64,000 nt of DNA, taken from positions 176,206,001 to 176,270,000 of the forward strand of contig NC_086097.1 in NCBI RefSeq assembly GCF_963921235.1, in the 5' to 3' direction. The notes under the pieces are model-generated. The model was not told where the DNA came from. It saw nothing but the letters and a program-made list of their open reading frames with translations, and made no database searches. This DNA comes from Mobula hypostoma (lineage: Eukaryota). Below are positions 1 through 58,084 of the stretch, piece by piece. The position numbers and the translations under genes were made by a program. Each line of letters opens with the position of its first letter. The first letter of the stretch is position 1.

Positions 1-859
1 ATATTCACAAGGTTTAATTATGTTCAATGTTATTATGTAATTAGCCATTTCCTCTTTGACGGTTGATTCTAGCACTTTGCCAAAATAGAGTTTGAACTAT
101 TTTACCTCTTACAAGTGAGCTACATAGGCTGCTTTCCAATCTCTGGTATCACTCCTGACATAACGAGCTCTGAAAACTTTTGGCCAATGGCTCCACTGTC
201 TGTGCAGCCACTTCCTTCAATGGGCACAAACCATCAAGTGTCACCCATTTGTCAACCCTCTTGAATATTTTATTCCTTGTAAGTGGGATTATTACCAACT
301 CCTCCCTGTCACTTGAAGTTAGCCTGCCTATTACCTTGGGCAGTTCCCCATGGTGAAGACTAATGAAAAATAAAGATTCAACACCTCTTTCATTTCATTA
401 ATTCCTGTTATTAATTTACCCGGTGCATTCTTTAGCAAACCCACACCAACCACAGCTACCTGCAAAAAAAAACCTTCTGGAAGATCTCAGTTGATCAAAC
501 ATCATTCTATGTCTACAGCCTTGGCCATCTTCATCCTATTTATGCATTCACAGAAATTCTTAGTATTTGTTTTGCTCTTGTACGCATTTTTCCCTCAAAA
601 TCATTTTTCTCCCTTCTTGTGAGCTTTTTAGCCTTTTGCTGCTGAATCTTATCACTTTGCACCTTAACTTTAGCCCTCACGTCCTTGTTAATGCAGATCA
701 TGCTTCTTTTGTGAGGAATCTCTTTTTCCTATTGGGATCAATTCCTGCTGAGTTTGCCAGACCAGCTGTTTGAATATCTACCATCCTTCATCCACTGACC
801 TACATATATCTCTTAGCTTATTTTCCCAATCCACCTTGATACCTTTAAGAAATCCCTGA

Positions 860-1345
860 GGATGGATGAGATCTATCTATCTATATGATCCACATCCCTC
901 CATTCCGCCCCCCCACATATTCATGTGTCAGTCTAAGAATCTCTTAAATTCCACTATTGTATTTGCTTTCAACATCACACCAGGCAGTACAACTGAGGCA
1001 GCCATTAAACGTTGTAGAAAAACATTGCCCCTCCCATCTTCTTTAACTTTTCCCTTCTCAACTTAAATGCACGCTCTCTTGAACTTAGTATTTCTACCCT
1101 GAGTGAAAGAATCTGACCATCTACCTTATATATGCCTCTCACAATTTTATAAAGTTCTATTGGGCTCCCCTCAGCTTCTGATGATCTAGAAAAAACAATC
1201 CAGCTCTTTCCAGCCTCTCCTTATAGCACATACTCTCTAATGTAGGCAGCATCATGACAGACCCTCTCCAAAGCCTTCACATTCTTCCTCTAATGAGGCA
1301 ATTGAACTGAACACAATACTCGAAATGAGGCCAAACCAAAATTTC
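860..1345 (-). mobile_element. Degraded CR1 LINE 3' fragment
   Basis: Resembles the CR1 3' ends found elsewhere in the window (e.g. 33632-34355); heavily decayed, boundaries approximate. Confidence 0.6.
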
Positions 1346-1480
1346 ATACAGAAGACCAATAAAGGCAGAGCAGTAGATTTACATATGGACTTTAGGAAGT
1401 CATTTAACACTGTAATGTGTTTTTCTGATGAGAAGCATATGACCACTGGTTAGCCTCTGGAACTGGTGCTAGAATATACA

Positions 1481-2370
1481 GTACACCTGTATCTGAAAGG
1501 TCCAACGGCTGGTGAGTCAGTATCTGGCAAAAACCACACCACGAAGACAAAAGAACACTCCAAGCAACTCCGTGAAGAGGTTATTGCAAAGCACAAGTTA
1601 GGAGATGGATACAAGAAAATATGCAAGCCAGTGGATTACAGTTAAGTCACTCATCAAGAAATGGAAAGAACATGGCACAGCTGTAAATCAGACTAGAGCA
1701 GGCCGTCTTCAAAACTTGAGTGACCGTGCAAGAAGGAGACTAGTGAGGGAGGCCACCAAGAGACCTATGACAACACTGGAGGGGTTACAAGCTTCAGTGG
1801 CTGAGATGGGAGAGACTGTGCATACAACAACTGTTGCCCAGGTGCTTCACCAGGCAGCTTTATGGGAGAGTGGCAATGAGAGATTCACTGCTGAAAAAAA
1901 TTCACATGAAATCTTGGCTAGAGTTTGCCTGAAGGCATGTGGGAGACACTGAAGTCAGCTGGAAGAAGGTTCCATGATCTGATGAAACCAAAATTGAGCG
2001 TTTTGGCCATCAGACTAAATGTTTAGCTTTGGCTTAAGCTAAACACCACACATCATCAAAAACACAACATACCTGCCGTGAAGCATGGTGGTGGCTGCAT
2101 CATACTGTGGGGATGCTTCACTGCAGAAGGCCCTGGAAGGCTTGTGAAGGTAGATGGTAAAATGAATGCAGCAAAATACAGGGAAATCCTGGAGTAAAAC
2201 CTGCAAGAGAACTGTGACTTGGGAGAAGGTTTGTTTTCCAGCAAGACAATGACCCCAAGCTTAAATCTACACAGGAATGGCTTAAAAACAACAAAGCTAA
2301 TGTCCTGGAGTAGTCAAGTTCAGAGTCCAGACCTCAATCCAATTGAGAATTTGTTGCTGGACTTGAAAAG
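1481..2370 (+). mobile_element. Truncated Tc1-family transposase pseudogene
   Basis: ORF 1605-1952 (VKSLIKKWKEHGTAVN..GR...RRLVREATKRPMTT) is a Tc1 HTH region. Downstream DETKIE, VKHGGG and SPDLNPIENL motifs are broken by stops and frameshifts. Same family as 31034-33467; no terminal inverted repeats (TIRs). Confidence 0.9.
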
Positions 2371-2640
2371 GTGTTAACGGACATTTTTAATATCTCTCTG
2401 AAACAGTCCACTGTACCTGCAGGCTTCAAGACAGCCACCATCATTCCGGTGCCAAAGAAAGTCGTGGTAACTGGCTTAAATGATTACCACTCAGTGGCAC
2501 TGACTTCAACAATCATGAACTTCTTTGAGCAGCTGGTAATGGATCATATAAAATCCCACCATCCAGCTGCATTGGACCCATTCCAGTTCACCTACTGCTC
2601 CGCTCATGATGTCATAGAGTCGGCCCCCCCCACCCATCCT
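2371..2640 (+). mobile_element. Rex1/Babar LINE reverse-transcriptase fragment
   Basis: LTDIFNISLKQSTVPAGFKTATIIPVPKK..LNDYHSVALTS..LDPFQFTY matches the N-terminal RT region of Rex1-type LINEs. Confidence 0.8.
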
Positions 2641-3529
2641 GCCTCACCCAGGAAATGGCTGACCCAGCTCCTTTGTATGGTGCTCCTCAGTTCCAGCTCC
2701 TGCACTCTCTCGTGTCCCAGCTTAGCTTTTGCAATGCTTTGCACGTTAACGTATTGCTAATATACACATTCTTTTCTTGCATATCGTTCATACAGATCAA
2801 ATCATCACACACTGCATTGAGGTAGAATGAGGTAAAAGAACAACTATACAGAAAAAGTGTAAAAGCTACAGAAAAAGTGCAGTGCAGGTAAGCAATAAAG
2901 TGTAAGATCAGGAGGTAGTTTGTGAGCTCAAGTGTTCATTTTTAGTGTACAATCCATTCAAAATCTTATGACAGCAGATAGAAGCTGTCTTTCAGCCTGA
3001 TGGAGCACACTTTCTTCTTTTTTTAATTTTGGGCCCAATGGAATTGGGGAGATGCAAAAATTGCTGGTGTGGGAGAGGACTTGGATTATTCAGGCTGCTT
3101 TTCTGAGGCAGTGAGAAGTGTAGTCAGAGTCTATGGAGGGGATGGTGGTTTTTGTGATGTGCTGAACTGTGCCCAAGTCTGCAGTTATTTGCAGTGTTTT
3201 ATTGTATCTGCCTTTGTCGCTTCTTCTGGCAGCTCATTCCTCTGTGTGAAAGAGTTACCTCTCAGATTTTCACACTCTCTCCCTAAAGCCCCTCGTTCAT
3301 GTTTCCCCAGCCCTGGGTAAAAGAGAGACACCAGTTCAGGGCCAACAAAGGATACTTAATGAATGTCAGCATTTCCAATAAAAAACATTCCTCAGGATAA
3401 AAAACCGAGCTGCACAGTGGGAGTGCAGCACTGTATAGAGCCATTATTATATTCTGATGAGGGTTAACAAGAACATAGGATCCAGTCAGGGTGGGTTGGC
3501 CAATAGGAAGTCAGTGATCCCCATGGTCA

Positions 3530-4099
3530 ATGTTCAAGGCCAGTGGCCCCCATGTCAAAGAGATCCCCCATGTTTCTGGGTCCTGGGATCAGAGATCCAT
3601 GTGGGCAGGAGGCTCAAGGGCTGGTGAATCTCCAGGTTGGCAAGTCCCAGGTTCAGAAATCTGGAGTTCTGTGTCCAATGATCAGCGAGTTCTGGGGTCA
3701 ATAATGGAGACTGAAGACTGAAGTTGGTGATTCCAGAAATAAAGGTTCGATGTTCAAAACCCTTGGGTTGGCAAGTTTGGAAGTCGGAGGCCCAATGTCC
3801 GTGGGTGTGCGAGTCCGCTGGAGGCTGGAAGCCTATAGGCAGCCTGTTCTGGTATTGAAAGCCTGTCTCTGAATGTGATTTCAAGGGTGGTTGGAAGAGA
3901 GGACAGAGACTTGTTTTGCTGTTTCTGTTTTATTGCTGTTGTTGTTGTTCTATCTGAACATCGTGGACATGCTACGTTGGTGCTGAAATGTGTGGCAACA
4001 GTGGACTGCCTTCAGTAATGTTGGTTCTAACGTTAGCAATGCACTTCACCACATGTTTCAATGTACACGTGATAAATAAACGAATCTGAATCTGAATCT
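3530..4099 (+). mobile_element. Non-coding retroposon-like repeat with AATAAA-(GAATCT)n tail
   Basis: Ends in aataaataaacgaatctgaatctgaatct, a LINE-type microsatellite tail; no coding motif; 5' boundary uncertain. Confidence 0.45.
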
Positions 4100-4417
4100 A
4101 TTGGAACACACGCCCAACCGTGCCAGCTTCTGGGGTTCAGATGCTCTAACTCTCCAGAATATAGATAGCTGGCACAGCCCCTTTAAAGATGCAGGCCATC
4201 CACCCCCCATTGGCAGTCATATTTTGGCCCCAGGATTTAATATTTAAAAGAGCACAAATTGGGATTCAGTGCTCAATCATCAGCTCAGTTCTGGATTGTC
4301 ATCTAGTATCTAGCTCAGAACCCTGTCTTCGTTTCAGTCTTCTATCCTGTCCTAATTCTAGTCTTGGATACTCCAGGACTTGGGTCCTAACCATCCTCAT
4401 CTAGCTCTCTCATCACA
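4100..4417 (+). repeat. 5' LTR remnant of the chromovirus-like Gypsy
   Basis: Collinear with 9003-9297 (ggatttaatatttaaa..gagcac, attctagtcttggatactccag..cttgggtcc..aaccatcctca); ends in CA; start not resolved. Confidence 0.85.
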
Positions 4418-6997
4418 GTACAATTGAGTCAACATGGATTCAGGAGGGTTTTGAAGCCTTTTGTCAGCTGCGGACAGCCACAGTGAGAAAATTTCAAGAC
4501 AGAGCCTGGAGATACACCACCTCTTGGTTGCTGTGTGCCAACTATCGCAGTGAGGAAGTCAGAGTCACTCAGGTGAGGCTGTTGGTCACTCTGCGGAGCC
4601 AGTCCATCTCCAAACCAAGAGAAATTCGCTCATGGCCTGAGTTCTTGCCACAGCTTCCTTACTCAACGTTCATTGAAGTCCAGCTGGCCCAGTTCCATAT
4701 GGAACGCGAGAAGGTGGCCTTCATGATCTCTCCTGACTGAGAAAGCCCTGGCATGGGCCACCATGTATTGGGAGTGAAGGTTGGAGATTTGCTTGGATGC
4801 GGAGGAATTCATGGTCGCTATGAAGAGGGTGTTCCATCATCCTGCCAGAGCTAAATGAGCCTCGGACCGCCTGGTGAAGGTGCGTTAGGGCAGTCAGTCA
4901 GCAGCCGACTATGCCATTGAATTTCAGACTTTGGCCTAAGAGAGTGGGTGGAACGAGGACGCCTTGGTCACTCTGTACCACCACAGACTCCGAGGCAAAC
5001 TAAAAGACGTCCTTGCCTTGGGGGAGTTGGTAGAGGACTTGGAGGCTCTGATTGATCAGCCCATCTGTCTTGATAATCGCCTGGCAGAGTGAGAGTGAGA
5101 CTACCTCAAGAGACTCGTCCAAACCCAGACTCAATGCACTGCAGTTCCATGCCCCAGCCTCAGGCAATGCTCAGGATCCTGTCAAGCCCATGCAAATTGG
5201 CTGCATAAGAATCTTCACCAAGTAGAGACTCTGGTGTAGGAGTTGAGGTTGCAGCTACAACTGTGGGGAAGCTTGTCACCTGTGTGCCAAATACCCTCGA
5301 GAAAACTATTAAGCTCATTTGGTGTTGGGAGGACTGTAATGGTAACAGCCACTATTCTCAACCTCTCAGAATTTGGTGTCACACTGAGGGCGGAGATCTC
5401 CTGGGGTAAGAACCAATGAGAAGTGAGTGCTTTATCAGACTCTGAGGCTGCTGGAAGTTTTCTGGACCTGGGGACCGCCCAGCAGCTCAATGGACTGCTG
5501 CAGGAGTTGAGCTAGCCCATGCCCGCCACTGTCTTGGACAGCTGTCTGCTTGGTTCCGGACAGATCCAGCAGCAGACATTGGTTCTGTGGATGAGGATAG
5601 AGGATCATGCTGAGGCCATTGGCTTCTCTATCACTGAGTCTCCTCACATACCCCTGACCCTCGGGCACATTTGGTTGTCCTAGCAAAACGCTTCCATGGA
5701 CTGGAAGGAAGGGAGCATCATCAAATGGTCCAGTCACTGCAAGAAGGTTTGTTTTCAGCTTGGTTCTGACCTCCAGACCCCCAGATCTGGAAGAGGCATT
5801 AAGCAAGGGAAAGGCTTCGACTCTTCCACTGCACTGACCCCACGACTATGCTATAGACTTATAGCTTGGTACTTGTCCAATGTGGAGTCAATTATACATG
5901 TTCTGAGGCCCAGAGAGAAGTGCTATGGAGGAGTATATAAAGGAGGCTCTTGCCCTGGGATTCATTCGACACTCTACCTCTCTAGATGGTGCTGGCTTCT
6001 TCTTTGTACAGAAGAAGTACAGGAGCCTGCAGCCGTGCATTGATTATAGAGGACTGTATCACACAATGGTCATGAATCGTTACTCTTTTCCACTCATGAG
6101 CACTGCCTTCGAGATTCTCCAAGAGGCTAGAGTATTCTCGAAACTAGACTTGCAGAGTGCGTACAGTCTGGTTCGCATAAAGGAGGGTGACGAGTGGAAG
6201 ATGGCATTCAACATACCGATAGGGCACTATAAGTATCTGGTCATGCCTTTCAGCCTTTATCAAAGGCCTGCAAATTCATCACCTTGGACAAACTACCATC
6301 TGTGGTGGAGATGGCTGAAATTGACCTGCACCAGGTCTTCAGGATCCACAGTTTTCCAACGGCCATTGTGTCAGATCGCTGTCCACATTTCATGTCATAT
6401 TTTTGGAGGGCACTCTGTGAGCTGATTGGGGCAAACATGAATCTTTCCTTTGGCTTTCACCCACAGTCCAATGATCGGTGAACCAAGGCTTGGAACAAAC
6501 CTTAGGATACCTGGCCTCTGAAAGACTGGACGAGAGGTGTGACCACTTGATGTGGGTAGATGTGCCCCTGACACTTCACAGCATTCAGCACACAGGATGT
6601 CCCATTTCAACTGCCAATTTGGATATTCTCCGCCACTCTTCCCTGAGCAGGAGGCTGAGTTTGGGGTTCCTGCTGCCAAAGATGTTGTCCGACTCTGACA
6701 GGAGAAATGGACTAGGGTAAGGGAGATTTTGTTAGCTTCTACCTGGAAAGCTGAAATGAAGGCCGATCACAAGAGAAAACAGGGACCAGATTTGCAGCCT
6801 GGGCACCAGGTACGGCTGTTGACTCAGGATTTGCCTCTCCGGGTGGAGTCTAGGAAATTGGTGCCCTTCGAGATTCTCAGGAAAGTTAACTCAGCGGCCT
6901 ACACCTTGTGGCTCCCCAAGGCCCCTAAGATCAAGCAACATACATCAAAGTTGCTGGTGAACGCAGCAGGCCAAGCAGCATCTATAGGAAGAGGCGC

Positions 6998-7033
6998 AGT
7001 CGACGTTTCAGGCCGAGACCCTTCGTCAGGACT
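6998..7033 (-). ncRNA. Minimal type-I hammerhead ribozyme motif, inverted copy
   Basis: Exact reverse complement of 8595-8630. Confidence 0.8.
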
Positions 7034-7330
7034 AACTGAAGGAAGAGTGAGTAAGGGATTTGAAAGCTGAAGGGGGAGGGGGAGATCCAAAATGATAGGA
7101 GAAGACAGGAGGGGGAGGGATAGAGCTGAGAGCTGGACAGGTGATAGGCAAAAGTGGATACGAGAGGATCATGGGACAGGAGGTCTGGGAAGAAAGACAA
7201 GGAGGGGGGGGTTGACCCAGAGGATGGGCAAGAGGTATATTCAGAGGGACAGAGGGAGAAAAAGGAGAGTGAGAGAAAGAATGTGTGCATAAAAATGAGT
7301 AACAGATGGGGTACGAGGGGGAGGTGGGGC

Positions 7331-7657
7331 CTAGCGGAAGTTAGAGAAGTCGATGTTCATGCCATCAGGTTGGAGGCTACCCAGATGGAATATAAGGTGT
7401 TGTTCCTCCAACCTGAGTGTGGCTTCATCTTTACAGTAGAGGAGGCCGTGGATAGACATGTCAGAATGGGAATGGGATGTGGAATTAAAATGTCTGGCCA
7501 CTGGGAGATCCTGCTTTCTCTGGCGGACAGAGCGTAGATGTTCAGCAAAGCGGTCTCCCAGTCTGCGTCGGGTCTCACCAATATATAAAAGGCCACATCG
7601 GGAGCACCGGACGCAGTATATCACCCCAGTCGACTCACAGGTGAAGTGATGCCTCAC
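7331..7657 (-). pseudogene. PLE GIY-YIG endonuclease domain, open C-terminal remnant of a 5'-truncated ORF
   Basis: HFTCESTGVIYCVRCSRCGLLYIGETRRRLGDRFAEHLRS..PVARHF..LRLEEQHLIFHLGSLQPDGMN: VIY/YIG motifs with CxxC typical of Penelope-like endonucleases. Confidence 0.92.
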
Positions 7658-8594
7658 CTGGAAGGACTGTTTGGGGCCCTGAATGGTGGTAAGGGAGGAA
7701 GTGTAAGGGCATGTGTAGCACTTGTTCCGCTTACACGGATAAGTGCCAGGAGGGAGATCAGTGGGGAGGGATGGGGGGGACGAATGGACAAGGGAGTTGT
7801 GTAGGGAGCGATCCCTGCGGAATGCAGAGAGAGGCGGGGAGGGAAAGATGTGCTTAGTGGTGGGATCCCGTTGGAGGTGGCGGAAGTTACGGAGAATAAT
7901 ATGTTGGACCCGGAGGCTAGTGGGGTGGTAGGTGAGGACCGGGGAACCCTATTCCTAGTGGGGTGGTGGGAGGATGGAGTGAGAGCAGATGTACGTGAAA
8001 TGGGGGAGATGCGTTTAAGAGCAGAGTTGATAGTGGAGGAAGGGAAGCCCCTTTCTTTAAAAAATGAAGACATCTCCCTCGTCCTAGACATCTACGCTCT
8101 GTCCGCCAGAGAAAGCAGGATCTCCCAGTGGCCACACATTTTAATTCCACATCCCATTCCCATTCTGACATGTCTATCCACGGCCTCCTCTACTGTAAAG
8201 ATGAAGCCACACTCAGGTTGGAGGAACAACACCTTATATTCCGTCTGGGTAGCCTCCAACCTGATGGCATGAACATCGACTTCTCTAACTTCCGCTAGGC
8301 CCCACCTCCCCCTCGTACCCCATCTGTTACTCATTTTTATGCACACATTCTTTCTCTCACTCTCCTTTTTCTCCCTCTGTCCCTCTGAATATACCCCTTG
8401 CCCATCCTCTGGGTCAACCCCCCCTCCTTGTCTTTCTTCCCAGACCTCCTGTCCCATGATCCTCTCGTATCCACTTTTGCTTATCACCTGTCCAGCTCTT
8501 GACTCTATCCCTCCCCCTCCTGTCTTCTCCTATCATTTTGGATCTCCCCCTCCCCCTCCAACTTTCAAATCCCTTACTCACTCTTCCTTCAGTT

Positions 8595-8630
8595 AGTCCT
8601 GACGAAGGGTCTCGGCCTGAAACGTCGACT
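8595..8630 (+). ncRNA. Minimal type-I hammerhead ribozyme motif in the PLE terminal repeat
   Basis: AGTC (stem I) - CTGACGA - AGG gtctcgg CCT (stem II) - GAAA - CGTC, predicted cleavage after 8626 - GACT (stem I). Stem III is reduced to palindromic ACGT. Confidence 0.8.
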
Positions 8631-9002
8631 GCACCTCTTCCTACAGATGCTGCCTGGCCTGCTGCGTTCACCAGCAACTTTGATGTATGTTGCTTGAATT
8701 TCCAGCATCTGCAGAATTCCTGTTGTTTGTCCTTAAGATCAATCCCACTTTCCATGTTTCCAAATGAAAGGCTGTGAACACCAGCCCTTTAGTCCACCAC
8801 CATCAGTTTTCTGCTGCCTGGGTTTGCCGTTAGCAGACTTTGGATTCACGAACTGTTCGGGGTGTTTGACAGTTCCCTGTGGACTAGGAAGGATTCGGAC
8901 CTGAGGAACGGTGCTGAGTTCCTGAAAGGAACATCTTGGATCTGGCTCTCATCCACGACTACCATCATCGTCTCTCTGAGCAGCCAGGACCATCAGGGGA
9001 GG

Positions 9003-9297
9003 ACACAGGCCAGCTTCCAGGGTTTAGACGCACTAACTCTCTGGAATATAGCTAGCTAGCATGGCTTCTTTAGAGAGTCAGGACACCCCGCTAATCGGCA
9101 GCCGTGTTTTGGCACCGGGATTTAATATTTAAAGAGCACCTGATCTGAGTGCTCAATTATCGTCTCAGTTTTGGGTGCTTGTCTAGCATCTAGTTTAGAA
9201 TCCTGCCTTCATTTCTGTCCTGTATCGTGACTCGATTCTAGTCTTGGATACTCCAGCACTTGGGTCCCAACCATCCTCACCTAGATCTCTCGTCACA
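9003..9297 (+). repeat. 3' LTR remnant of the chromovirus-like Gypsy
   Basis: Diverged direct repeat of 4100-4417 ending cgtcaca; no clear TG start or polypurine tract seen. Confidence 0.85.
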
Positions 9298-9309
9298 AGA
9301 TCTGAGGAT

Positions 9310-10190
9310 ACAAAATTGGTTTGCTGGTAAGAGCAAAGGTATTGGGGTCCTGTGGTGTGTTACAGAGATTGATGCTCAGTCCCCTGTTTTCAGTCATGTA
9401 TATTAACAATATGAATGAGAGCGTAAGTGACACTAAAACTGGTGGTAAAGTGGACAATGAAGAAGATTGTCTAAGCTTGCCACTGGATCTAGATCAACCG
9501 GCAAAGTGGGCCAAGGAATGGCAGACTGAATTTAACTCAGACAAGTGGAGAGTTGAAATTTCCAAAATTAAACCAGGGCAGACTTACACAGTAAGTGGCA
9601 GAGCCCTGGAGAATGCTGTAGAAAAAAAGAGACCTAGCGTTACAAGGACATTGTTCTGAGTAAGCGATGTCACAGATAAGGCAGTGTGCTGGAGAAGGCA
9701 TCTGGCACCCTTGGCTTTTTCAGTCAGGACCCGAAGTACAAGAGATGGAATGTTGTTTAGATTGAACGTGGAGTATCTTGTGCAGTCTTTTTGCCACACT
9801 GTAGTAAGGATGTGTTTAAGCTGGAGAGGGTGCAGAAAAGATACACAAGGATATTGTCAGGACTGGAAGTCTTCATTTTTTAGGGGAGATTGGATAGGGT
9901 GGGACATTTTTCACTGGAATGAAGGAGGGTGAAGGCTAACTTTGTCTTTTTCCCAGAGTAGGGGAGTCTAAATTTGAGGGCATTGCTTTAAGGTGAGAGG
10001 GGAAATAGGTAGAGGTCCTGGTAAAGACAAGTATAGTTACAACATTTAAAATATATTTTGACAGGTACACAAACAGGAAAGGGCTAGAGGTAAATAGGAC
10101 AATTGGAGGGAAATGGGATTAACTTTGAAAGGCATCTTGATAGGTACAGACAAGCTGGACTAAAGGCCTTGTTCCCATGCTGTAGAAGTC
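9310..10190 (+). mobile_element. CR1 LINE RT/3' fragment, degraded
   Basis: LSPLFSVMYINNM..DTKTGGKVDNEED..DLDQPAKWAKEWQTEFNSDK is the CR1 RT C-terminal motif, followed by a CR1-like 3' UTR. Confidence 0.85.
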
Positions 10191-10754
10191 TGAATTACTG
10201 AATTTCTAGAGTTTCAGCAAATTTACAAAGTGTTCAGTTTGGCCCGGCAAATTTACAAGGCTGGAGAAACTGAGATATAATTATCACATATCAATATTTA
10301 GTTTTGATTATCTTGAGAAGCAGCTCCACCCACAAATTTGTTTATCCCTAAAGTATGAATTAATCACCTTCTGAAATTGCACTTATTTAGAACAGAAAAA
10401 AGGAAGCAAATATTGTGCCCGAGTTTTAGAGTCAGTGTCACGTTTTGAAAATATTTCAACAGAATAAGAAAATTACTAATGGATTTCTGCAACATCAAAA
10501 AACTATTTGGGTGTTTCAGTATAAATTTCACGAAGATATATTTAGCAAATTAAGATTAAATTCCATACAGTAGGTGTATGAGAAACGTGTTTGAAATGTT
10601 TAATTCTGAGGACGAAGCCTACTTTCAACAGCAGAGATTTATAGAGTTATACAGCATACAAACAAGTCCTTTGGCCTGACTCATTAGTTGCTGACCAGGT
10701 TGCTTAGCAGCACTAGGCAAACAATCTGAATGTTCCAGAAATTCATGAAAAATC

Positions 10755-11305
10755 AGAATCAGGAAAGATCAAAATCAGGTTTATTATTATATTTGACGTA
10801 TGTTGTGAAATTTGTTGTTTTGTAGCAATGGTATAGAGCAAGTCATAAAAATTGCTGTAAGTCCCCAAAATAAATAATAAATAAATAGATATATTAATGG
10901 ATAGATAGACACAGTAGTTAGATAGACAGATAAATAATACAGAAGGGGAATAGCAGGATCATGTTTGTGGGTTATCAGATTGTTCAGAAATCTGACAGCG
11001 GAGTCAAAGAAACTGTTTCTAAAATATTGAATGTGGGTCTTCAGAATCCTGCATCTCGTCCCTGATGGCAATAATGAGAAGAAGCCATGTCCTGGATGGT
11101 GAGGGTCCCTAACAATGAATGCCACTTTCTTGAGGCACTGCTCTTTGAAGATGTTCTTGATGGTGTGGAGGTTTGTGCCTATGATAGAGGTGGAGAAGTC
11201 TACAATACTCTGCTGCCTCATTCAATTCCGTGCATTGGAGCCTCAGTGGCAGGTGGCGATGTAACCAGTCAGTATGCTCTCTGTGTTACCTCAGTAGAAA
11301 TTTTC
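10755..11305 (-). mobile_element. Rex1/Babar LINE 3' fragment
   Basis: ORF 10787-11221: IVRDPHHPGHGFFSLLPSGTRCR..FRNSFFDSAVRFLN; (GATTCT)-like tail. Confidence 0.85.
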
Positions 11306-11444
11306 TAGCCTTTTTAAAATTTAAAATTTTATTTTATTAATTTTTGATCTATTCATTTATTTTTATAATTCGGGGATTTTATGTTTTCACATTGTACTGC
11401 TGATGCAAAGCAATAAATTTCATGTCATATATCAGTAATATGAG

Positions 11445-12125
11445 GAGGAGGAGAAGATGGTGGCGTGACGCAGCGCGCATGGCCACTTCAGTGGTGATGT
11501 CTGTTATTTGTCAAGTAGGGGACCATGCACAATTGTGATTTGATGGAGACTGATGTGACAGTACGGAGGAAAATCTGGAGAAACTTCTGAAATGCCCACT
11601 TTGCTGCCGCTGTTACTGTGGGGTCCGGAATCTCTGGGGGTTAAGGCCCCGAATCCTTGGCTTTGCTTGTTTCGGCAGCCGGGATGAAGTCAAAAGCGCT
11701 CGGCAGAGGATGGCGTTCGGGAGGCAGTATCGGAGGGGCTGGTTGGAGGCCCGAAGTTTTCGGATGGACGGACTCAGTGTCGGCTGTGGTTGGGTGCTTC
11801 CAATGCATCGGCAGTTGTCGGTGCCTGGAGGTTTATGGCAGGGAGTTTCTCCCTTTGCCGCCTGCTATCGGGGACTCAGGGGTCGATCGACTCGGGACTT
11901 CGAGACTTTTTTTACCGTGCCCATGGTCTGTTCTTTATCAAATTATGGTATTGCTTTGCACTGCTGTAACTGTGTGTTATAATTATGTGGTTCTGTCAGT
12001 GTTAGTCTTTGGTTTGTCCTGTTTTTCTGTGATATCACTCTGGAGAAATGTTGTATCATTTCTTAATGCATTCATGCATTTCTAAATGACAATAAACGAG
12101 GACAGAGTGTTCTCATAATATAATT
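11445..12125 (+). mobile_element. Non-autonomous retroposon: GC-rich 5' leader plus AATAAA tail, no RT
   Basis: Starts gaggagaagatggtggcg (AAGATGGCG-like LINE leader), CpG-rich, ends gacaataaacgagg..cataatataattata; splits another LINE tail (atcagtaata / gatctgattctgattct). Confidence 0.6.
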
Positions 12126-14099
12126 ATAGATCTGATTCTGATTCTTGTCCCGTTTGCCCATGTTTGGCCCATATCCCTTGAAACCCTTCATATTTATGTA
12201 CCTGTCCAAACTGTCCATTTACAGAAAGGCACAAGGAAGTCTCAAACATGCAAGAAGAGCTTGAGCCTCTTCATTTTTATCAAGATCAATATGGGAATTT
12301 TTTTCATGTTTGATTTCGTTTTTTTTCATGTTTGTTTCAATAAAACTCAGGCCACAATAAATATCTATGTTTACATTCAATTTTAAACAAATGTTAAGAA
12401 TCAAATTAGTAATACAGCATAGAAATAGGTACTTTGGCCCAACTTCCTGGAAACATTCTCCTAAATCTTTTTTGCACTCTTTCTAACTTGATGCTGAACT
12501 TTCCTCTAACTTCATGTGGGCTTAAAAAGGTCACTTGAACTACCTGTCCATGGCAGATGATCACTGGTGGGATGGAGCTGGAAAAGCCCAGAAGAGTAAA
12601 GGAATGGCGGTGGAGGAATGAAAAAGAAGAATAGGTAAGAAAGTAAACGGGATCCGAGTGACAGGAAAGCAAGTGAACGTACTGTAGAAGAAAAATAAAT
12701 CAAAATGAATTAAGCTGAAGCTAGGACTTGGAGTCGCAGCTGAAAAGAAAAGTGTTGCCCATTTAAACGAGGCAACTGTTTACTCTGAGTGTCTTCTTTT
12801 AATAATGACACAGAGGGAACCTATTTCATCTCTCAGCTCTATGGCTGCAATTCCTACATACTCTACAGTACTCTGGACTCCAGCAACGTATTGCAGAATT
12901 ACAGTGGAAAGCTTTGCAGGCCATCCATACAGATCAGTCTGTAACAGCAAGGACCTTTGTGATGGATCTTCACTGTCTGGGGGACTTTATCATCTTTGTT
13001 AAGTTTAGCTTTCTAAACACAACAGCTGACATTTCTATTGATCAAATTGTTACTTTTGAGTAAGTTAAACTTCCAAACAATTCCCTTTGTTTAGCTTCTA
13101 TTTGTAAATGGGAGCTAGTCTTTAGTGATTAATGTAACTGGCAAACTGTAATCTGTTTGAAGTTAAAAGGACAGCTTTGCAAACAAGCACGGCCTATGGA
13201 AAAGATTTGATGGCCCAAAAGCTCCTGGTCTAACTGCTACAGAGGTGGAGTATAAGAAAATGGGTTATTTAATTTGGCTTGATTCAAAATAGACAACTCT
13301 AGCTATGTAGTTGAGTTCAAGAAAGCTTACAGACCAGACTGATATTATTACAGCACTTTAACAACTGATTTGTTAATAGTTGAAAGGTTTGTGTATTCAA
13401 GAGAGTTGTCCTCACCACATTATTTATGAGTACCTAGGAACTTTTGCCTCCGGAAACTTTTAGACTGTTTGTGTTAAAAGGTATCTGAAAAAAAGTCATG
13501 TTTATAAAGTCACCTAAATGGCAAAGAAACAGTATAAATGTAGAGACCAGTTCAGGCTTATTAGAAATAGTCAAGGAACATCAAGAAGAATGACAGAAAT
13601 ACAACATGAATTAGAATTCATTCCTCTGCCTTTGATTTCTGTGATGGATGATTAGCTTCTCGGAAACTCATGGGTATGTCTTCTTAGCTTAGATGAATTC
13701 TCCTTGTGTTTCGGAAATCATTTGTGTTTTAGAATGGTTTGTAGATTGAAAGTGTTTTTATAAGATAGAAATCCTCCGTGATTTTTAAATGTGTTTTAAA
13801 AATGTTGTTTGTAGATGCTTAACACTGAAAATAAATGAACTGTGTATAAACTACTTTGTTATCTGGACGTATCTCCTTCTTAGAAGTGGGGTTGGAGGGG
13901 GGAGCAGCAAAACACACCATGGAACTAGACTTTGAAGGTTGGGTCATTACAGTAGAATCTCCCTTTAGTGGGGCTACCTGTAGCTATCTATATCGGATAG
14001 GACTTAGGGTCTTTGTTTGAGTATAGAAATTTGTAGTCAGCAAACCCACACCTTTCAGCTCCCCATTTATTCTTTTTGCCATAATATGCATACTTAGGA

Positions 14100-14280
14100 T
14101 AACTTACAGAAACTAACTCACCCACCTAACTTTGGAATGTGGGAAGGTGCACCCAGGGAAACCACAGTAACTGCAGTGAAATAACTGGCAAATTCTATAT
14201 ACACAGCACCCAAAATCAGGAATGAACTCAGGACCATGAAGCCACCAGGCAGCAGAACTACCTTCTACACCACTGTGCCT
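14100..14280 (-). mobile_element. Degraded V-type SINE
   Basis: ctttggaatgtgggaagg..cacccagggaaaccac is the reverse V-domain core, followed by a B-box-like segment. Confidence 0.55.
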
Positions 14281-15764
14281 GCTACTTGAACCCAGACTGC
14301 AGGAGCAACCCAGTGGGTAAGCATATCCGCAGGACAGAGTACGGGAGAGGAGTTCTCGGCATCCCTGCATCAGCACTGAGAGTGGAGACAGTAGATAGCC
14401 GGTATCCTATTGTGTCTCCACTTGGAACTCTGTTCCTCAGAGGATAGTGGAAGCAGGACCTGTGAACATTTTCAAGGCAGAGGTAGGTTGACTCTTGATA
14501 AGCAAGGAGAATGAAATAGGGAGGAATATGGAGTAAAGGCCACAGATAGATTAGTTGTGATTAAAATGGTCATGCGGACTTGGTAGACAGAGTGACCGTC
14601 TCCTGCTTCTAAGTTGTACGTTTGGTAGGTATGATTACCGATTTTGGTTTAGCTGTGTTTTTTTTGGAGAATGAATGCTAATGCATCTCTTTTGTGGAGT
14701 TCTTTCTTACTATTGAGGGAACATAATCCACAAAAACGTCCTGAACTCAACACGAAGTGAGTAAACAAAAATTTAACCCGACATGGGATATATATTCAAA
14801 TTGAAGCAAAGGAATGATGATATTTTACAATGCTGTTGGGGCGTGTAGCTTCAAAGTTCAAAGTAAATTTATGAACATATAATTGACCATATACAATCCT
14901 GTCAATCATTTTCTTGCGGCCATATCAGTATATCCTATAAACACAACAGAATCAATGAGAGACTGCACCCAACAAGGTGGACAACCAGTATGCAAAGACA
15001 ACAAACTGTGCAAATATAAAAGAGAAAAAGAAACATGGAAGTTTATGGCTACTCCTGGGAGTTGGGTGTGAACTAAAACAAGACTTTGAAAAAGTGATCC
15101 CATTTCATTTTGTTCTAGTTGTGTTGTTTCTTGTAAAAATTGTTTATAACTTAAGTTTCATACATATTTTTCTTGTGAATGCTACTTGTATGATATGTTC
15201 CTGTGCTGCTGCAAGTTTTTAATTGTGCTTGTGCATACATTCATTTGTGCATATGATAGTAAACTTGACTTTTGTTTTGAAATCTCTGGCATCCCCCAGC
15301 CCCTACCCACCCAACTCACCTCAGGATCAGTCTACAAAATTCATCCCAACTTAAGTGAGACTGTGCATAGGAAGACCGCATAAAAGGATGTCGATTTCTA
15401 GTGGGAAAGATTAATACCAACAAAATGGCTCTGTATCTGTTTCCTGGCAAGAGAAATTCATGTCACCAACTGACTTTGCTATCTTCAATCTGTTGTCCAT
15501 CCAGTAAGGAATATTTATTCTTATTACTGGATGCAAATCCAGCCGAAACTATATACGATTATGTTAACTGGAAGGTTAAAAATGCTGATGCTGAGATATT
15601 GAATTTCTGAAAATAAAGCAGAAATGTTGGAAAGATCCAGCATCTCGCCAGCTCCTGTTGACCTGAAATATTAACAACTTCTCTCCTGAGTGATGTTACT
15701 TCTTCTGCTAACGATTTCCAACATTTCTCCGCTCCTGCCTCCCTGCCTGCAAACGCTGAAGACA

Positions 15765-15970
15765 ATTAACCCACTGACTTTACATGTCTTTGTGATGATG
15801 GAGGAAATCTGAGAGCGTGGGAGAAATTCATATGGTCACAGACAGACAGAACATGCAAACTCCACCCAGACAATGGCCGACTTCTACTCCTTTGTCTTAT
15901 GGTCTTATGGACAGTACTGGACGTCAGGATTAGACCTGGCTCTCTGGAACTGTGAGTCACCAGTTTCAAC
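15765..15970 (-). mobile_element. Degraded V-type SINE
   Basis: aattaaccc..tgtcttt..ggaggaaatctgagagc..ggtcac..agaacatgcaaactccac matches the other V-SINE copies in the window. Confidence 0.55.
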
Positions 15971-16316
15971 AGCCATCTGATTTCATTCCAAACCTTCTAT
16001 CAATTAGCCTAACTCTCTGTCGTTTGGCTGCTCAGCCTAAGAAAACAATCCTGTTTATCTCTCTGGGTCCCTCCTAGTTTTCTCAACTGCAGTTAAACCT
16101 CTTTCATTCTGAAAGAAACCATCAGAACATGGACCGTCTGTGTTTGAAGCAACTGATAGGCATGACTCATTGTGCTCTGTAGATTAGATACTCTTTCTGA
16201 TTCACGTATAATGTCTACATGTGACTGACTCTCTGTGAAAATATTTATTATCCTCCCTTAACTTGTTTGATTGGTGTAAACAGTTATGTTGAAGTATCAA
16301 TGGATCTGGAGTTACA

Positions 16317-16538
16317 GCAACACTCACAACACGCTGGAGGAACTCAGCAGGTCGGGCAGCATCCGTGGAAAAGATCAGTCGACGTTTTGGGCCGGAAACC
16401 TTCGTCAGGCCTGACAAAGGGCTCTGGCCCAAAACGTCGACTGATCTTTTCCACGGATGCTGCCCGACCTGCTGAGTTCCTCCAGCATGTTGTGAGTGTT
16501 GCTTTGACCCCAGTATCTGCAGATTATTTTGTGTTTAC
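16317..16538. mobile_element. PLE-derived palindromic (hairpin) element with 14-bp TSD
   Basis: Near-perfect palindrome centred on tcaggcctga (about 16410). TSD GATCTGGAGT(T/C)ACA at 16303-16316 and 16539-16552. Two inverted, mutated hammerhead cores. Confidence 0.9.
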
Positions 16539-16579
16539 GATCTGGAGTCACATGTAGGCCAGAACTGACTACAATAGAG

Positions 16580-18420
16580 CATAGAACTTAGAACAAGAGT
16601 GCAACACAAAGCAGTGCCTCTGGCCCATAATGTTGTGCTGCCTTTTTAATATACCCTAAGGTGTATCTAACCCTTCCCTCCCACATAGATCTCTGTTTTT
16701 CATTTATCCATGTGCCTATCTACGAGCCTCTTAAAGGTCGCTAATGTTTCTGCCTCTACTACTACCCCTGGCAGTGTGATCTGCTGTCTGCGCAAAATAT
16801 CTACCTCTAACATCCCCCCCCACCATACCTTCCTACAGTTACCTTAAAATTATGCCTCCTTGTATTAGCCATTTCCACCCTGGGAAAATATCTCTGGCTG
16901 CTCACTCTTTCTATGTCTCTTACCCCAATCAAGTCGCCTCTCATCCTTCACTCCAAAGAGAAAAGCTTTAGCTCACTCAACCTATCTTCCTAAGACGTGC
17001 TCTCTAATCCAGACAGTATCTTGGTAAATCTCCTCTGCACCCTCTCTAAAGCTTCCACATTCTTCTTATAATGTGGGATCTAGAAATGAACACAATATTC
17101 CAAGTGGGTCAAGATAGCACCAGCAAACAATGCTACCTTGGGTGACATCTTCTAGTTAGTCCACAAAACTGTTTCCTTCACTTCTTCTATGTCTTTTTTT
17201 TAAATTTTAAGTGTGTTTTTGGTACTGTTAGAGCCTTTGCTCTACAGACTGAAGATCGATTAAGTGATCTGGCACTTTGCTGTCTCCAAGAAGATTCCGG
17301 GAGGTGAGCAACCTCGATGCCTAGAAGCTTAGAGATGGACGTGAACCTACCATCGACCTCATTTCTCGACTATTAAAGCATCGGGGAAAATTTTGAGGTG
17401 AGTGTGGAAGGTGAATGAATGTTCAGTGCTATCTGCCAGCCTCTCACTCACTCTGCTGGAGGAAGGTGTCTGCCTGCGACAGTCTCTTGCTTGCTGCTCC
17501 TGGGGGAAGGCCCGTGTGACTGGGTGATCTCTCTCTCCTATGATGCTATCAGAGGATGGTACTGAAGTTCTGGGTCTGCAGTTTATAGATTGTACTGTGG
17601 TCTTCTTGGACTCATTCAGTTTTGTGTTTGATATTCTATGTTTTTGCCCATCCTTTCCTTTTGCTGTTTGTATGATTTGTTTTATTTTGCACAATGGTGG
17701 AGGGTTTGTGGTTTAATGTTCTTCTTGCTGTTTGTGCAATTCATTTGATGTTTTTCGTGTGGAGGATTGGGGCTTTGGTGTTTGTGGTTCTTGTTGCCGT
17801 TTGCACGATTTGTTTTTAGCGCATGGGAGTTGATGTTCTCGCCATTTGCACGATTTGTTTATTTTGTGCATAGAGAGGGGGAGTGTTGACATTTTTCTTT
17901 GAATGGCTTCCATGGCCTTCTTTGTTCCATGGCTGTCTGGAGAAGACAAATCTCAGAGTCGTATACTGTATGCATACTCTGATAATAAATGTACCTTGAA
18001 CCTTGAGCTAGAGTTTTATAGGGCTGTATCTCTTACCTCATGCCTCTTAACTCTTGAATTTAATCCCCCGACTACTGAAGCACACATGATATACCTTCAT
18101 AACCGCGCGATCATTTCCAAGGCACCTTTGAGGGATCAATAGACTTGGACTCCAAGTTCCCTCTGTTTCTCCACACTGCTAAGAATCCTGCCATTAACCT
18201 AGTATTCTGCTTTTTAGTTCAACTATTCAAACTGTATCACTTTGTACTTTTCCGCATTGAACTCTGTCTGTCACTTCTCAGCCCAGCTCTGCATCAATTA
18301 ATGTCCCATTCTAATCTGCAACAACCCTTTACACTATCCACAACACCACCAATCATTGTGCCATCTGCAAATTTGCGAACCCACCCTTCACCCAGGTCAT
18401 TTATAAAAATCACAAAGAGT
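16580..18420 (-). mobile_element. CR1 LINE 3' region interrupted by a non-coding retroposon
   Basis: CR1 3' end at 16580-17108 resumes at about 18010-18420 (RT region). Confidence 0.75.
17110..18006 (+). mobile_element. Non-coding retroposon with internal imperfect repeats
   Basis: Tail gataataaatgtaccttgaaccttga; several copies of ttgc(t/c)gtttg.a.gatttgttt..ttttgc between 17660 and 17870; related copy at 18580-19172. Confidence 0.6.
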
Positions 18421-18579
18421 TGTGGTTCCAGAAAACTAAAATCTGGGCTGGACGGGATACACAGTACCCCAGGTTACCATGTGAAGTGAAGGAACAGATT
18501 ACTGCACCTTTGGTGATAATATTTGCATCCTCACAGGCTAGGGGTAGATCGAGAAGATTGGAGGGTAGCAAAGGTTATT

Positions 18580-19172
18580 TCTTTGTCCCTTTAGATGTAG
18601 TTCTGGTACTGTTGGAGCCTGTGATCTACAGTTTGATGGTGTATTTTTGGGTCAATTTGAGTGATCTGGTGCTTTGGTATCTCCGAAAAGGAGGTGCGCG
18701 GGCATGAGACCAAGAAGCTTACAGATGGGATGTGAGCCCATGATCGACTCCATTTCTCACTGATTAAAGTGTCAAGGAAGACTGAAATCATTGTAGAAAG
18801 TGCGGAAGGTGAACAAGTGTTCGGTGCTGCTAACTGCCCTCGATGCTGTTGGAGGATGGTACCAAAGTTCTGGGTCTGCGGTTTATGGATTGGACTGTAG
18901 TTTGATTGAACTTTTAAAATCTTATGTTTTTATATTCTGTGTTTTCACTTGTTCTTTCATGTTACCATTTGTGCAATTTGTTTTTTTTTTTGCATGGGGG
19001 TTAGTTGACGTTCTTGTTGATGTTCGCGCAATTTGTACATTTTTTGCACGTGGGGGAGTGATGTTTTTCTTTGAATAGTTTCTATTTTTTTGTTTTGTGA
19101 CTGTCTGGAGAAGATGACTCTCAGAGTTGTATACTGCATACATACTTTGATAGTAAATGTACTTTGAACTTT
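18580..19172 (+). mobile_element. Second copy of the non-coding retroposon family at 17110-18006
   Basis: Shared blocks gtgatctgg..ctttg, ggatggtac..aagttctgggtctgc.gtttat, ctgtctggagaaga..tctcagagt, and tail aaatgtactttgaacttt. Confidence 0.6.
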
Positions 19173-19612
19173 AATTGCTGGGCGGGCTAGAGGTATAAGA
19201 TTTAAGAAGGATTCTGCATTTTGCTAATGATTTATTTCTCCTTTTGAGCATTATTATAATTTCTAATCTAAGCACATTCCCTCACTCTCTGTCAAAGGAT
19301 GAGTCAACAATTCGTCTCTGACTAACCTTTCAATCATCTTGCCTTGAATTCAATACGTCTAGACAAACTCTTTTTACTATTTTCATTATCTAAAGGAGCT
19401 TTATAAATGCAAATTTATACAGGTCACACAGAAGCAGAACGCATAATAAAGAATAAAGCTTATCAACAAACAGGGCGTCAGGGATAGTTGGTATAAATTT
19501 AAGAAGGGAAAGTGATTCTTGTCCAACCTCAGTGAGTTGTCTGTGGAATCAAGGGGAAGGGTAGACAAAGGGAACATAGTAGACGTACAGTATAACTAAA
19601 CACTCATGCACA

Positions 19613-19640
19613 GACACACACACACACACACACTCACATA
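19613..19640. repeat. (CA)n microsatellite
   Basis: Direct reading. Confidence 0.9.
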
Positions 19641-20562
19641 CAGACTAACACTCACACCCATCCATGCAAAACATGCACAAATGCAAACACACACAGAGAA
19701 TTCCAGTCAGAGTTTTATAATTATGCTGGCTGCTTGACCGAGACAATGAGAACTGTAGACAGAGTTCATGGTGGAGAGATTAGTTTCTGTGATATGCTGA
19801 GCTGTATCCACATCTCTGCAGTTCCTAGGAGCCAGAGGCAGAGCAGTTGCCAAACCAAGCTGTGGTGCATCCCGATAGGATGCTTCAGCAGTTATTTATT
19901 GGTTGTACACCATGTCAGAATGTATTTGTCTCAAGGTCTATATCATCCTTCTATTCGATGTCCATGATGTTGTTGCTCAGTCTTGAAAATAAATTGCCAT
20001 CCCTAATATCTTAATTCTTATGAATATGTCCACTTGATAAATTCATCTTACCATAATTTGCAAAAGATGATGGACCTGTGGAATGACAGCTGGAGAGAGG
20101 AAGGGGGGGGGAGAGGGGGGGAGGGGGGAGGGGGGGAAGAGGGGGGAAGCGTGGAAACAGGAACAAGGCTTTGGAAAGGTGATCCCAATTTTAGCTCCTT
20201 CTTTAACCAGGTTACTTTAATCAATTCGAGTTTGCTGTTATGTGCACAAGTATGATGAGGGACAGGGACAATGAAAAACCTGCTTGCAGCAGCATCACAG
20301 GCACATAGGTGCAGACAACACTCAGAATACAAATTATACACGTCCTATCCACCATGTGACTGCTTATTGGTCTGTCATGTGATTGGTCAATTTCACAGGC
20401 TTGTCCATCTATCAACTAACTTTTAACTTACTAACAAGACCACAAGACATAGGAGCAAAATTAAGCCATTTGGTCCACTGAGTCTGCTCTGTCATTCAAA
20501 CATGGCTGATTTTTTTTTCCCCCCTCCTTCACCCCTCTACATGGCCTTCTCACATAACCTTT

Positions 20563-28679: not shown

Positions 28680-28683
28680 CTTA

Positions 28684-30800
28684 AACAGGAGAAAGTCTGC
28701 AGATGCTGAAAATCTAAAGCAACACCTACAAAATGCTGGAGGAGCTCAGCAGGTTAGGCGGCATCTATGGAAATGAATAAGTAGTCGATGTTTTGGGCAT
28801 TCAGGTCTGAAAAGGAAGGGGGAAGATGCCAGAATAAAAAGGTGGAGGGAGGAGAAGGAGACTAGCTAGATGGTGATAGGTGAAGCCAGGTGAGTGGGAA
28901 AGATAAAGAACTGGAGAAGAAGGAATCTGATAGGAGAGAAGAGTGAACCAGAGGAAAATGGGGAGGAGTGAAGGATCCAGAGGGAGGTGATAGACAGGTC
29001 AGAAGAGGCAAGAGGTCAGAATCGGGAAGAGAAGTGGGGGGTGGGGGGGGGGTGGCGGAGAGAAATTTTTTTAACCAGAAGGAGAAATCTATATTCATGA
29101 CATTAGGTTGGAGGCTACCCAGGTGGAACCTGAGGGTGGTCTTATCTTGGCAAAGGGGAGGCTATGGACCAACATGTCAGAATGGGAATGTGAATCGGAA
29201 TTAAAATGTTTGGCCACCAGGAAGTTCCGTTTATGGTGGATGGAGCGGAGGTGCTAGACGAAGTGGTCCCCCAGTTTACGACTGGGAGGGGGGCGGGGTG
29301 CTCTCACCAAATGTCGAGGATGCTGCATTGGGAGCACTGGACTCAATAGACAACCTCAGCAGATTTGTAGATGAACACTGCTTCACCTGGAAGGATTGTT
29401 TGGGCCCCGAGTGGGGGTGAATGAGCAGGTGTAGTACTTAGGCCAATTGCAGGGATAAGTGTCGGGAAGGAAAATTAGAGGGGAGGGACAAATAGAACAG
29501 GGAATCACAGAGGGAATAATCCCTGCAGAAAGCAGCGAGAGAGGGGAGGTAAAGATATGTTTAGCAATAGGATCCCTTTGGAGATGGCAGACGTTGTGGA
29601 GGATGCTGTGTTGCATGTGGAGATTCAAAGGGTGGTAGGAAAGGACAAAAGGAACACTATCACTGTTAAGGCGGCAGGAAGATGGGGTGAGAGCAGCTGT
29701 TCAGGAAATGGATGAGATGCAGGTGAGGGCAGCATCACTAGTGGAGGAAGGGATACCCAGTTCTTTGGAGGAGGACATTTCTGATGTCCTGGAAAGGAAA
29801 GCCACTTCCTAGAAACAGAGCAACACACATACAAGTTGCTGGTGGACGCAGCAGGCCAGGAAGCATTACAGGAAGAGGTACAGTTGACGTTTCGGGCCGA
29901 GACCCTTCATCAGGTCTCGGCCCAAAACGTCGACTGTACCTCTTCCTATAGGTGCTGCCTGGCCTGCTGCATTCACCAGCAATTTTTATCTGGGTTTCTT
30001 GAAATTCCAGCATCTGCAGATTTCCTCATGTTTGCGTTCCTAGAAACAGATGCAGCAGAGGTGAAGGAACTGAGAAAAAGAAATAGCATTTTTACAGGAG
30101 AGGGGGTGAGAAGAGCTATAGTCAAAATAACTGGGAATCGGTAGGTTTATAAAAGATGTCGGTTTGTCTCCTGGGATGGAGACAGATCAGGAAAGAGGAG
30201 TAAGGTGCCAGAAATGGACCAGGTGAATTTAAGGGCAGGGTGGAAGTTAGGGGCAAGGTTGATGAAATTGACAAGCTCAGGGTGGGTGCATAAGGCAGTA
30301 CCAATGCAGTCAACAATGTAACAGAGGATAAGTTGGACAGCATCACCAGGGAAAGCTTGGAACACAGATTGTTCTACGCGACCAACAAAGGGGCAGGCAT
30401 AGCTTGGTGTATGTGGGTGTCCAGGGCTACCTTTTGAGTCTGGAGAAATTGGGAAGAGCCGAAGAAAACAATTGTTCAGGGTAAGGGCCAGTTCTGCCAG
30501 ATGGAGGAAGGTAGTGGCGAAGGGAACTGGTTGGTTCTTTCCTTGAGAACAAAGCAGAGAGCTTTGATGCCTTCTTGATAGGGGATGCAAGTGTATAGGA
30601 ACTGAGCATCCATGGTGAATATGAGGTGGTCAGCACCAGGGAATTGAAAGTTTTGAGGAGATTGAGAGCATCAGAAATATCTTGGATGTAGGTGGGAAGG
30701 AACTGAACCAAGGAGGATAGAACAGAGTCGAGATATGATGACACGAGTTCAGTGGGGGTAGGAGCAGGCAAAGGCAACAGGCCTATCCGGACAGTTAGGT
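28684..30800 (-). mobile_element. Older Penelope-like element: RT, GIY-YIG and terminal repeat
   Basis: PTELVSSYLDSVLSSLVQFLPTYIQD, LAELALTLNN, PSYACPFVG and NFHPALKFTWSIS PLE RT motifs; 3' part homologous to 6935-8087. Confidence 0.9.
29820..30036. mobile_element. PLE-derived palindromic element with exact 14-bp TSD, nested in an older PLE
   Basis: TSD TTCCTAGAAACAGA at 29806-29819 and 30037-30050; inverted arms; minus-strand core CTGATGA-AGGGTCTCGGCCC-GAAACGTC. Confidence 0.92.
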
Positions 30801-55978: not shown

Positions 55979-56120
55979 CTCGCTTAAAGTCCGTCCCCCC
56001 ACCTTAAATATATGTCCTCAGGTGTGAAGTCCCATGCCACCAGATTCAGGAACAGCCATTTCCTTACAACCATCAGGCTCTTCAACCGACCTGTCGAAAA
56101 TTAACTCTATCTCAGCAGTG

Positions 56121-58037: not shown

Positions 58038-58084
58038 CTGTGTAAGAGACTCTTTGGTCTTGCACTGAAGTCTCGTTTTTGCAC

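Follow-up and report, generated by a model that had tools for sequence, protein, structure and literature searches.

The 36-nt motif at positions 8595-8630 of the plus strand is very probably a minimal type-I hammerhead in the terminal repeat of a truncated Penelope-like element (PLE) without its reverse transcriptase (RT), likely selected for weak cleavage, aided by dimerization or by protein, in the full-length source RNA, and predicted to be silent at this locus. The motif class, its location in Penelope repeats and the pairing of copies on opposite strands are already published, and the locus is an ordinary case of them. As a ribozyme sighting it carries little weight, the class having been published in 2014 and the locus being a poor candidate for activity. 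The large ray family to which it belongs could test the purpose of the hammerhead, as a subfamily with a G.U closing pair is still amplifying, and how the inverted arm arises, from one template or from two. The features within the window, i.e., the whole 64-kb stretch of Mobula hypostoma DNA that was analysed, are as follows:

5907-6930 and from 8731, plus strand: decayed LTR-retrotransposon remnant, the target, split by the insertion
6923-6934, plus strand: left target-site duplication, 9 bp perfect at 6926-6934, 12 bp with one mismatch
6931-8087, minus strand: long arm, a 5'-truncated Penelope-like element with the end of the ORF, 3' UTR and hammerhead, and no tail
6998-7033, minus strand: second hammerhead copy, an identical 36-mer in the long arm, C17 at 7002
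7331-7948, minus strand: GIY-YIG endonuclease frame (Pfam PF01541, 23.4 bits against a cut-off of 22.6)
8088-8730, plus strand: short inverted arm, a 5'-truncated copy of 7541-6931 plus the tail
8580-8594, plus strand: pyrimidine-rich leader; its predicted pairing with the core and the 5' strand of helix II would exclude the hammerhead fold
8595-8630, plus strand: minimal type-I hammerhead motif (from descriptor, core reading, folding and alignment)
8595-8598/8627-8630, plus strand: helix I, AGUC/GACU, 4 bp, a fifth pair U.G possible; open end, hence type I
8599-8605, plus strand: core CUGACGA (from sequence)
8606, plus strand: unpaired A between positions 9 and 10.1 (from folding and alignment)
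8607-8610/8615-8618, plus strand: helix II, GGGU/GCCU, 4 bp, 4-nt loop, closing pair G10.1-U11.1
8619-8622, plus strand: GAAA (from sequence)
8622-8625, plus strand: ACGU palindrome (15.2-16.2), no helix III in a monomer
8624-8626, plus strand: GUC cleavage triplet, C17 at 8626, predicted cut after C8626
8698-8730, plus strand: Penelope 'tail', 33 nt (37 nt counted from the target duplication), on this arm only
8731-8742, plus strand: right target-site duplication, 9 bp perfect at 8734-8742

The motif and the insertion that carries it

A descriptor requiring the core sequences, a 3-bp helix II in one or the other register and a 4-bp helix I matched the 64 kb at two places only, 8595-8630 (plus) and 6998-7033 (minus), against a mean of 0.02 and a maximum of 1 match in 100 shuffles of the window; the two 36-mers belong to the arms of one inverted duplication, so they are not independent copies. 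The nucleotides of the minimal hammerhead core (C3-A9, G12-A15.1, U16.1 and H17) are all present in the 36-mer. An earlier, sequence-only reading had listed CUGACGA, GAAA, GUC and a stem I of AGUC/GACU, a stem III reduced to the bare ACGU palindrome that closes no hairpin in a monomer, and a mirror copy at 6998-7033, all of which were borne out, and its assignment to the minimal, dimer-type, type-I hammerheads of Penelope-like terminal repeats is supported by the element context and by the relatives. The check with Rfam models in Infernal that it had called for came back blank at E<=10 (over 1-20000 and 8540-8700), presumably because those models require a full helix III, and the folding energy of the 36-mer is close to that of its shuffles (z -0.37).

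The surrounding insertion displays the traits of EN+ Penelope-like elements, namely a C-terminal GIY-YIG, an inverted 5'-truncated repeat, a one-sided tail and a target duplication. The endonuclease frame is 95% identical to a predicted M. hypostoma protein, with a frameshift near 7940 relative to it, and its nine best protein matches are ray and shark proteins (57-95% identity); the hammerhead at 6998-7033 follows the endonuclease stop codon at a distance of 302 nt. The truncated copy in the window has no RT core; in the relatives P0013 and P0024, PF00078 precedes the matching region. The last 4 bases of the long arm overlap the target duplication, and the target remnant yielded an RVT_1 match and a Tf2-1-like SH3 match, each below its own cut-off. 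The short arm (8088-8697) is 97.9% identical to 7541-6931, with 13 differences in 611 columns. The description of this copy as young is plausible in view of the intact 9-bp duplication and these arms, although a 2% arm difference may be no clock. The family is very large, with 144,201 matching contigs in run X1 and 10,378 and 7,480 in two runs presumed to be RNA, and the 3' ends of its contigs cluster at 8728-8729; the raw-read run X21 gave 0 matching reads. Five predicted ray or skate host proteins (P0003, P0007, P0010, P0026 and P0027, with isoform names referring to kinase-domain, mucin-2, chitinase-domain, neuromedin-U receptor and NACHT proteins) contain Penelope endonuclease sequence, either by exonisation or by gene-model error. 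Elsewhere in the window, at 55980-58300, a 20-bp unit is repeated in tandem over about 2 kb, and long open frames are a by-product of this array.

In three inverted insertions of the window, the long arm stops 100-105 nt past C17 and the short arm 66-68 nt past it, and the target duplications measure 9, 10 and 14 bp; this spacing of the arm ends fits the prediction of a two-start-site model, as laid out in the available text of Frangieh et al. (2024, PMC11167929). The palindromic mini-insertion at 16303-16548 consists of hammerhead-to-tail arms around a centre at 16409/16410, with a 10-bp target duplication; both arms begin at the same base, the 5' edge of the motif, and both carry G12>A. A second one, at 29806-30050 (14-bp duplication), has its centre near 29913-29917, inside the motif, and sits in an older decayed Penelope-like element (approximately 28680-30800, minus strand) that shows RT similarity.

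Beyond the window, 12 of 79 metagenome loci with a related endonuclease showed a minimal hammerhead on the sense strand 96-301 nt past the endonuclease match, and 67 showed no downstream sense match; 58 of the loci had at least 350 nt downstream and 21 had less, and shuffled controls gave 0 hammerheads in each of 20 sets. These 12 loci are related to one another, and all 12 hammerheads have the unpaired base and G10.1-C11.1. The descriptor used here demands helix I, and helix II in either register, so that pairing in helix I is built in and only the comparison of registers is free. The metagenome contig L018 (3.5 kb) carries same-strand minimal hammerheads at 269 and 3421, 3,152 nt apart, flanking an ORF, and is apparently a full-length Penelope-like element. 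In L011, opposite-strand hammerheads at 1087 (minus) and 3582 (plus), which are distinguished by one base of the helix II loop and by the sequence around them, flank a related ORF, i.e., the mirror architecture in a distant host. Exact-pattern scans for copies of the family found 0 in metagenome contigs and 0 in viral contigs, and no endonuclease relative was recovered among viral contigs (0 of 9 candidates); the single viral match to a relaxed pattern (L001) was set aside, its flanks being unlike the element by eye.

Helix II and variation within the family

Stem II had been drawn in the sequence-only reading as AGG/CCU (A8606-G8608 with C8616-U8618), which is the wrong register: its pair probability is 0.02 in the isolated 36-mer, and its first pair (A-U) forms in 1 of 14 aligned motifs. 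The helix GGGU/GCCU, which leaves A8606 unpaired, has a pair probability of 0.86-0.96 in the isolated 36-mer, and its first pair (position 10.1-11.1) forms in 14 of 14 motifs, as G10.1-C11.1 in 13. In this register 96% of the alignment cells are paired, with both-side changes in 3 of the 4 pairs, against 64% for AGG/CCU. The 14-row alignment omits some of the 18 descriptor matches, namely the plus-strand copy of L011 and L067 (whose motifs equal those of L009 and L062), the upstream copy of L018, L007, L030 and L038; all six omitted motifs have G10.1-C11.1, and L030 is the only one without the unpaired base.

The closing pair of the window copy is thus a G10.1-U11.1 wobble in place of the usual G-C, a point missed earlier. 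By our own count in Fig. S3 of Cervera and De la Peña (2014, PMC4209133), in whose extracted text the GAAA columns stood apart, a G.U closing pair occurs in 8 of 56 published minimal hammerheads, including S. mansoni(1). G10.1-C11.1 is highly conserved and not universal, and the G.U of the window thus lies within the range of the family, off its consensus. A literature search found no direct measurement of the kinetic cost of G10.1-U11.1.

Within the family, U at 8618 (position 11.1) accounts for 72-81% of contig depth and C for 19, 20 and 28% in three runs, while decay alleles at ordinary CpG sites reach 6-15%; the mapping of short contigs may favour the reference letter and inflate T at 8618. 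Older copies in the window that retain the position have C in 6 of 6 cases and U in none, which speaks for decay to U in the young copy. A private CpG decay of the window copy was considered and is not supported, as both arms have U and C reaches only 19-28%, an argument that, given the mapping bias, weakens the idea without removing it. A protein search through the hammerhead frame, intended to count the 8618 alleles, returned 4 candidates, none at E<=10. The likeliest reading is that U11.1 marks a young subfamily, being apparently common in the family and probably not private decay.

The prevalence of U11.1, even though the relatives keep G-C, raises the question of whether cleavage is still under selection. 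The motif of the subfamily might be a catalytically relaxed relic, or a purely structural or protein-coding signal, with U11.1 reflecting lost selection on cleavage, a reading that we regard as rather improbable. It would agree with an insertion assay in which insertion was independent of cleavage (Frangieh et al., 2024, PMC11167929), and with G12>A in 5 of the 6 older window copies retaining the region (16410, 16409, 28798, 29913 and 52491), once in both arms of one insertion. This substitution could reflect CpG decay or an amplified dead-core subfamily; it is also what CpG decay would be expected to produce (5 changes, with 0 on the opposite strand, p = 0.06), and G.U closing pairs occur naturally, as counted above. 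Furthermore, among the 40 variants listed, the 36-mer varies at only 2 of its 36 bases, the freely variable N7 (8603) and 8618, against 12 of 71 flanking bases, a difference in the direction of constraint that is not significant (Fisher p = 0.13).

Folding and activity at the locus

In the predicted fold of the whole locus, 36 of 36 motif bases pair with the mirror arm on both strands. Since the antisense arm is transcribed first from either side, the motif in read-through RNA would be buried in a hairpin of 600 bp. It was correctly noted in the sequence-only reading that transcription from either side yields RNA with exactly one copy, but this counts against activity rather than for it. Because of this fold, together with the lack of the same-strand partner that a minimal hammerhead needs, self-cleavage at this locus appears unlikely on the folding model, and the motif would be a silent passenger. 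Two motifs in the source RNA would join through their ACGU palindromes, creating a helix III of 4 bp and allowing cleavage after C17. In published tests, a single minimal hammerhead, from S. mansoni, did not cleave, and dimers and trimers cleaved weakly (Cervera and De la Peña, 2014, PMC4209133). The anole PLE hammerhead cuts only with the protein of the element, and insertion in vitro does not depend on it (Frangieh et al., 2024, PMC11167929).

On the same model, RNA initiated within an arm, or between the two, would avoid the hairpin. With the mirror arm absent, the leader is predicted to pair with the core (pair 8590-8601, p 0.85-0.90), and RNAs that start at 8560-8575, and so include the natural leader, form helices I and II at p<=0.012. 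These helices rise to p 0.33-0.71 only with 5' ends at 8590-8595 and the 3' end at 8730, i.e., with the tail included; the same 5' ends with an RNA ending at 8660 give p 0.003-0.23. Where both helices form, the core is held in a rod of GACG with CGUC. For the intended dimer, the double hammerhead has an energy of -9.5 kcal/mol and the best fold of two RNAs one of -28.3 kcal/mol, which favours inactive folds; all these values come from nearest-neighbour energies, which are blind to tertiary contacts and to protein.

Among the 5' loose ends of family contigs, those with the most support are at 8595-8597 (484, 192 and 195 in X1), on the outer 5' edge of the motif and 30 nt ahead of the cut site. 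This stretch looks like a splice acceptor and also like an initiator, and part of the peak consists of older subfamilies with another leader; no GT..AG was found for the AG at 8595-8596 or 8645-8646 as splice acceptor among the joints listed (donors from 8300 on). A few contigs duplicate the motif itself, 35-37 nt, head-to-tail as natural tandem dimers (8629 back to 8595; 3 in X1 and 1 in X9), and similar head-to-tail joints occur at 8631-8632.

These predictions bear on whether the window copy could be active in vivo, with a transcript from inside an arm evading the hairpin and a second RNA, or the PLE protein acting in trans, restoring the fold. The core bases are intact in both arms, the wobble pair has natural precedents such as S. 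mansoni(1), family sequence is abundant in the two runs presumed to be RNA, and the RNA running from 8590-8595 to 8730 reaches appreciable helix probabilities. However, the natural leader is predicted to suppress both helices almost completely, and where they form the rod locks the core; no loose ends at 8627 were found among those listed, although contigs cannot show RNA ends, and no RNA-seq ends were found at the cut site of the anole element (Frangieh et al., 2024, PMC11167929). Activity of this copy is therefore, in our judgement, quite unlikely. A chance match or an assembly artefact (a fold-back chimera) is barely credible: despite the shuffle-like folding energy, the blank Rfam search and a contig mapping that reached the right junction and not 8087/8088, the chance rate of the descriptor is 0.02, distant relatives carry the same motif at the same place, the arms differ at 13 positions with a tail on one of them only and a target duplication present, and a contig of run X1 crosses the right junction (8708-8900) without a difference.

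Origin of the inverted arms and comparison with known systems

The insertion probably took the following course. The RT-endonuclease of the element would nick both target strands 9-12 bp apart, and cDNA would be primed at two internal start sites approximately 33-37 nt apart; both cDNAs, of 1.15 kb and 0.64 kb, would pass through the uncleaved hammerhead and would then be joined head to head at 8087/8088. The presence of the whole motif in both arms would mean that the template RNA was uncut at this site.

Whether one RNA or two served as template may have left a trace in the arm differences. The arms differ by 10 substitutions within 8300-8697, and at four of these (8396, 8561, 8633 and 8644) each of the two alleles is frequent in the family, with the left-arm allele reaching 31, 27, 14 and 30%, respectively, in X1 and lower values in X9 and X14 at some sites. 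At 8481 and 8502 the right-arm base is nearly private, and the other four substitutions are absent from the variants listed. With an assumed chance of 5-15% per site, a null rate that is itself an estimate, four common alleles in ten have p 0.001-0.05; leaving out the CpG site 8633, three in nine have p 0.008-0.14 under the same estimated null. Because decay after insertion would rarely land on common family alleles, the arms may have been copied from two RNAs of different source elements, with a protein dimer that loads both, primes one cDNA per target strand at the two internal start sites and joins the cDNAs head to head, a reading that we advance tentatively and hold to be somewhat less probable than its negation. 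The arm alleles suggest two RNAs with weak to moderate force, and gene conversion or recurrent mutation could also lie behind the shared alleles. If the two-template origin were general, every mirror-armed copy would record a two-RNA particle, a setting that could bring a dimer-only hammerhead together with its partner, and such insertions could not be dated by the divergence of their arms.

The inverted 5' arm, the one-sided tail of 30-40 bp and the duplications of 8-10 bp described for EN+ PLEs correspond to the architecture found in the window (Arkhipova et al., 2013, PMC3846280; Craig et al., 2021, PMC8557442). In those reports, as far as their available text goes, the inverted arm is ascribed to self-priming or to endonuclease resolution, whereas the arm differences of the window point to two templates. 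In Poseidon PAc of Anolis carolinensis, two internal RT start sites follow the hammerhead at approximately 100 nt, a layout that the window matches; the spacing of these sites gives the tail, both target strands are cut and extended, and the protein is predicted to dimerise (Frangieh et al., 2024, PMC11167929). PAc is a full-length element tested in vitro, while the window copy lacks the RT core and takes the Poseidon label by resemblance only.

Non-LTR retrozymes also carry a type-I hammerhead related to that of PLE terminal repeats (pLTRs) and are reported in one chondrichthyan genome (Li et al., 2026, 10.64898/2026.07.22.740005). They are non-coding head-to-tail tandems, which supply the same-strand partner, whereas the window holds an inverted, ORF-bearing fragment; an assignment of the locus to this class was rejected, as its copies are inverted and flank a GIY-YIG fragment. 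The closest counterparts are the minimal hammerheads of metazoan PLE pLTRs, with which the motif shares CUGANGA, one unpaired base, a helix II opened by G, GAAA, the palindromic CG, UH, a short helix I, a position 3' of the endonuclease and the occurrence of paired copies on opposite strands (Cervera and De la Peña, 2014, PMC4209133). The 56 examples given in the available part of that source include no cartilaginous fish, and compared with them the window copy stands out by its G.U closing pair and by a helix II of only 4 bp. Fig. S4A of the same work depicts a 5'-truncated PLE with a second minimal hammerhead on the opposite strand at its 5' end, the same arrangement as in the window.
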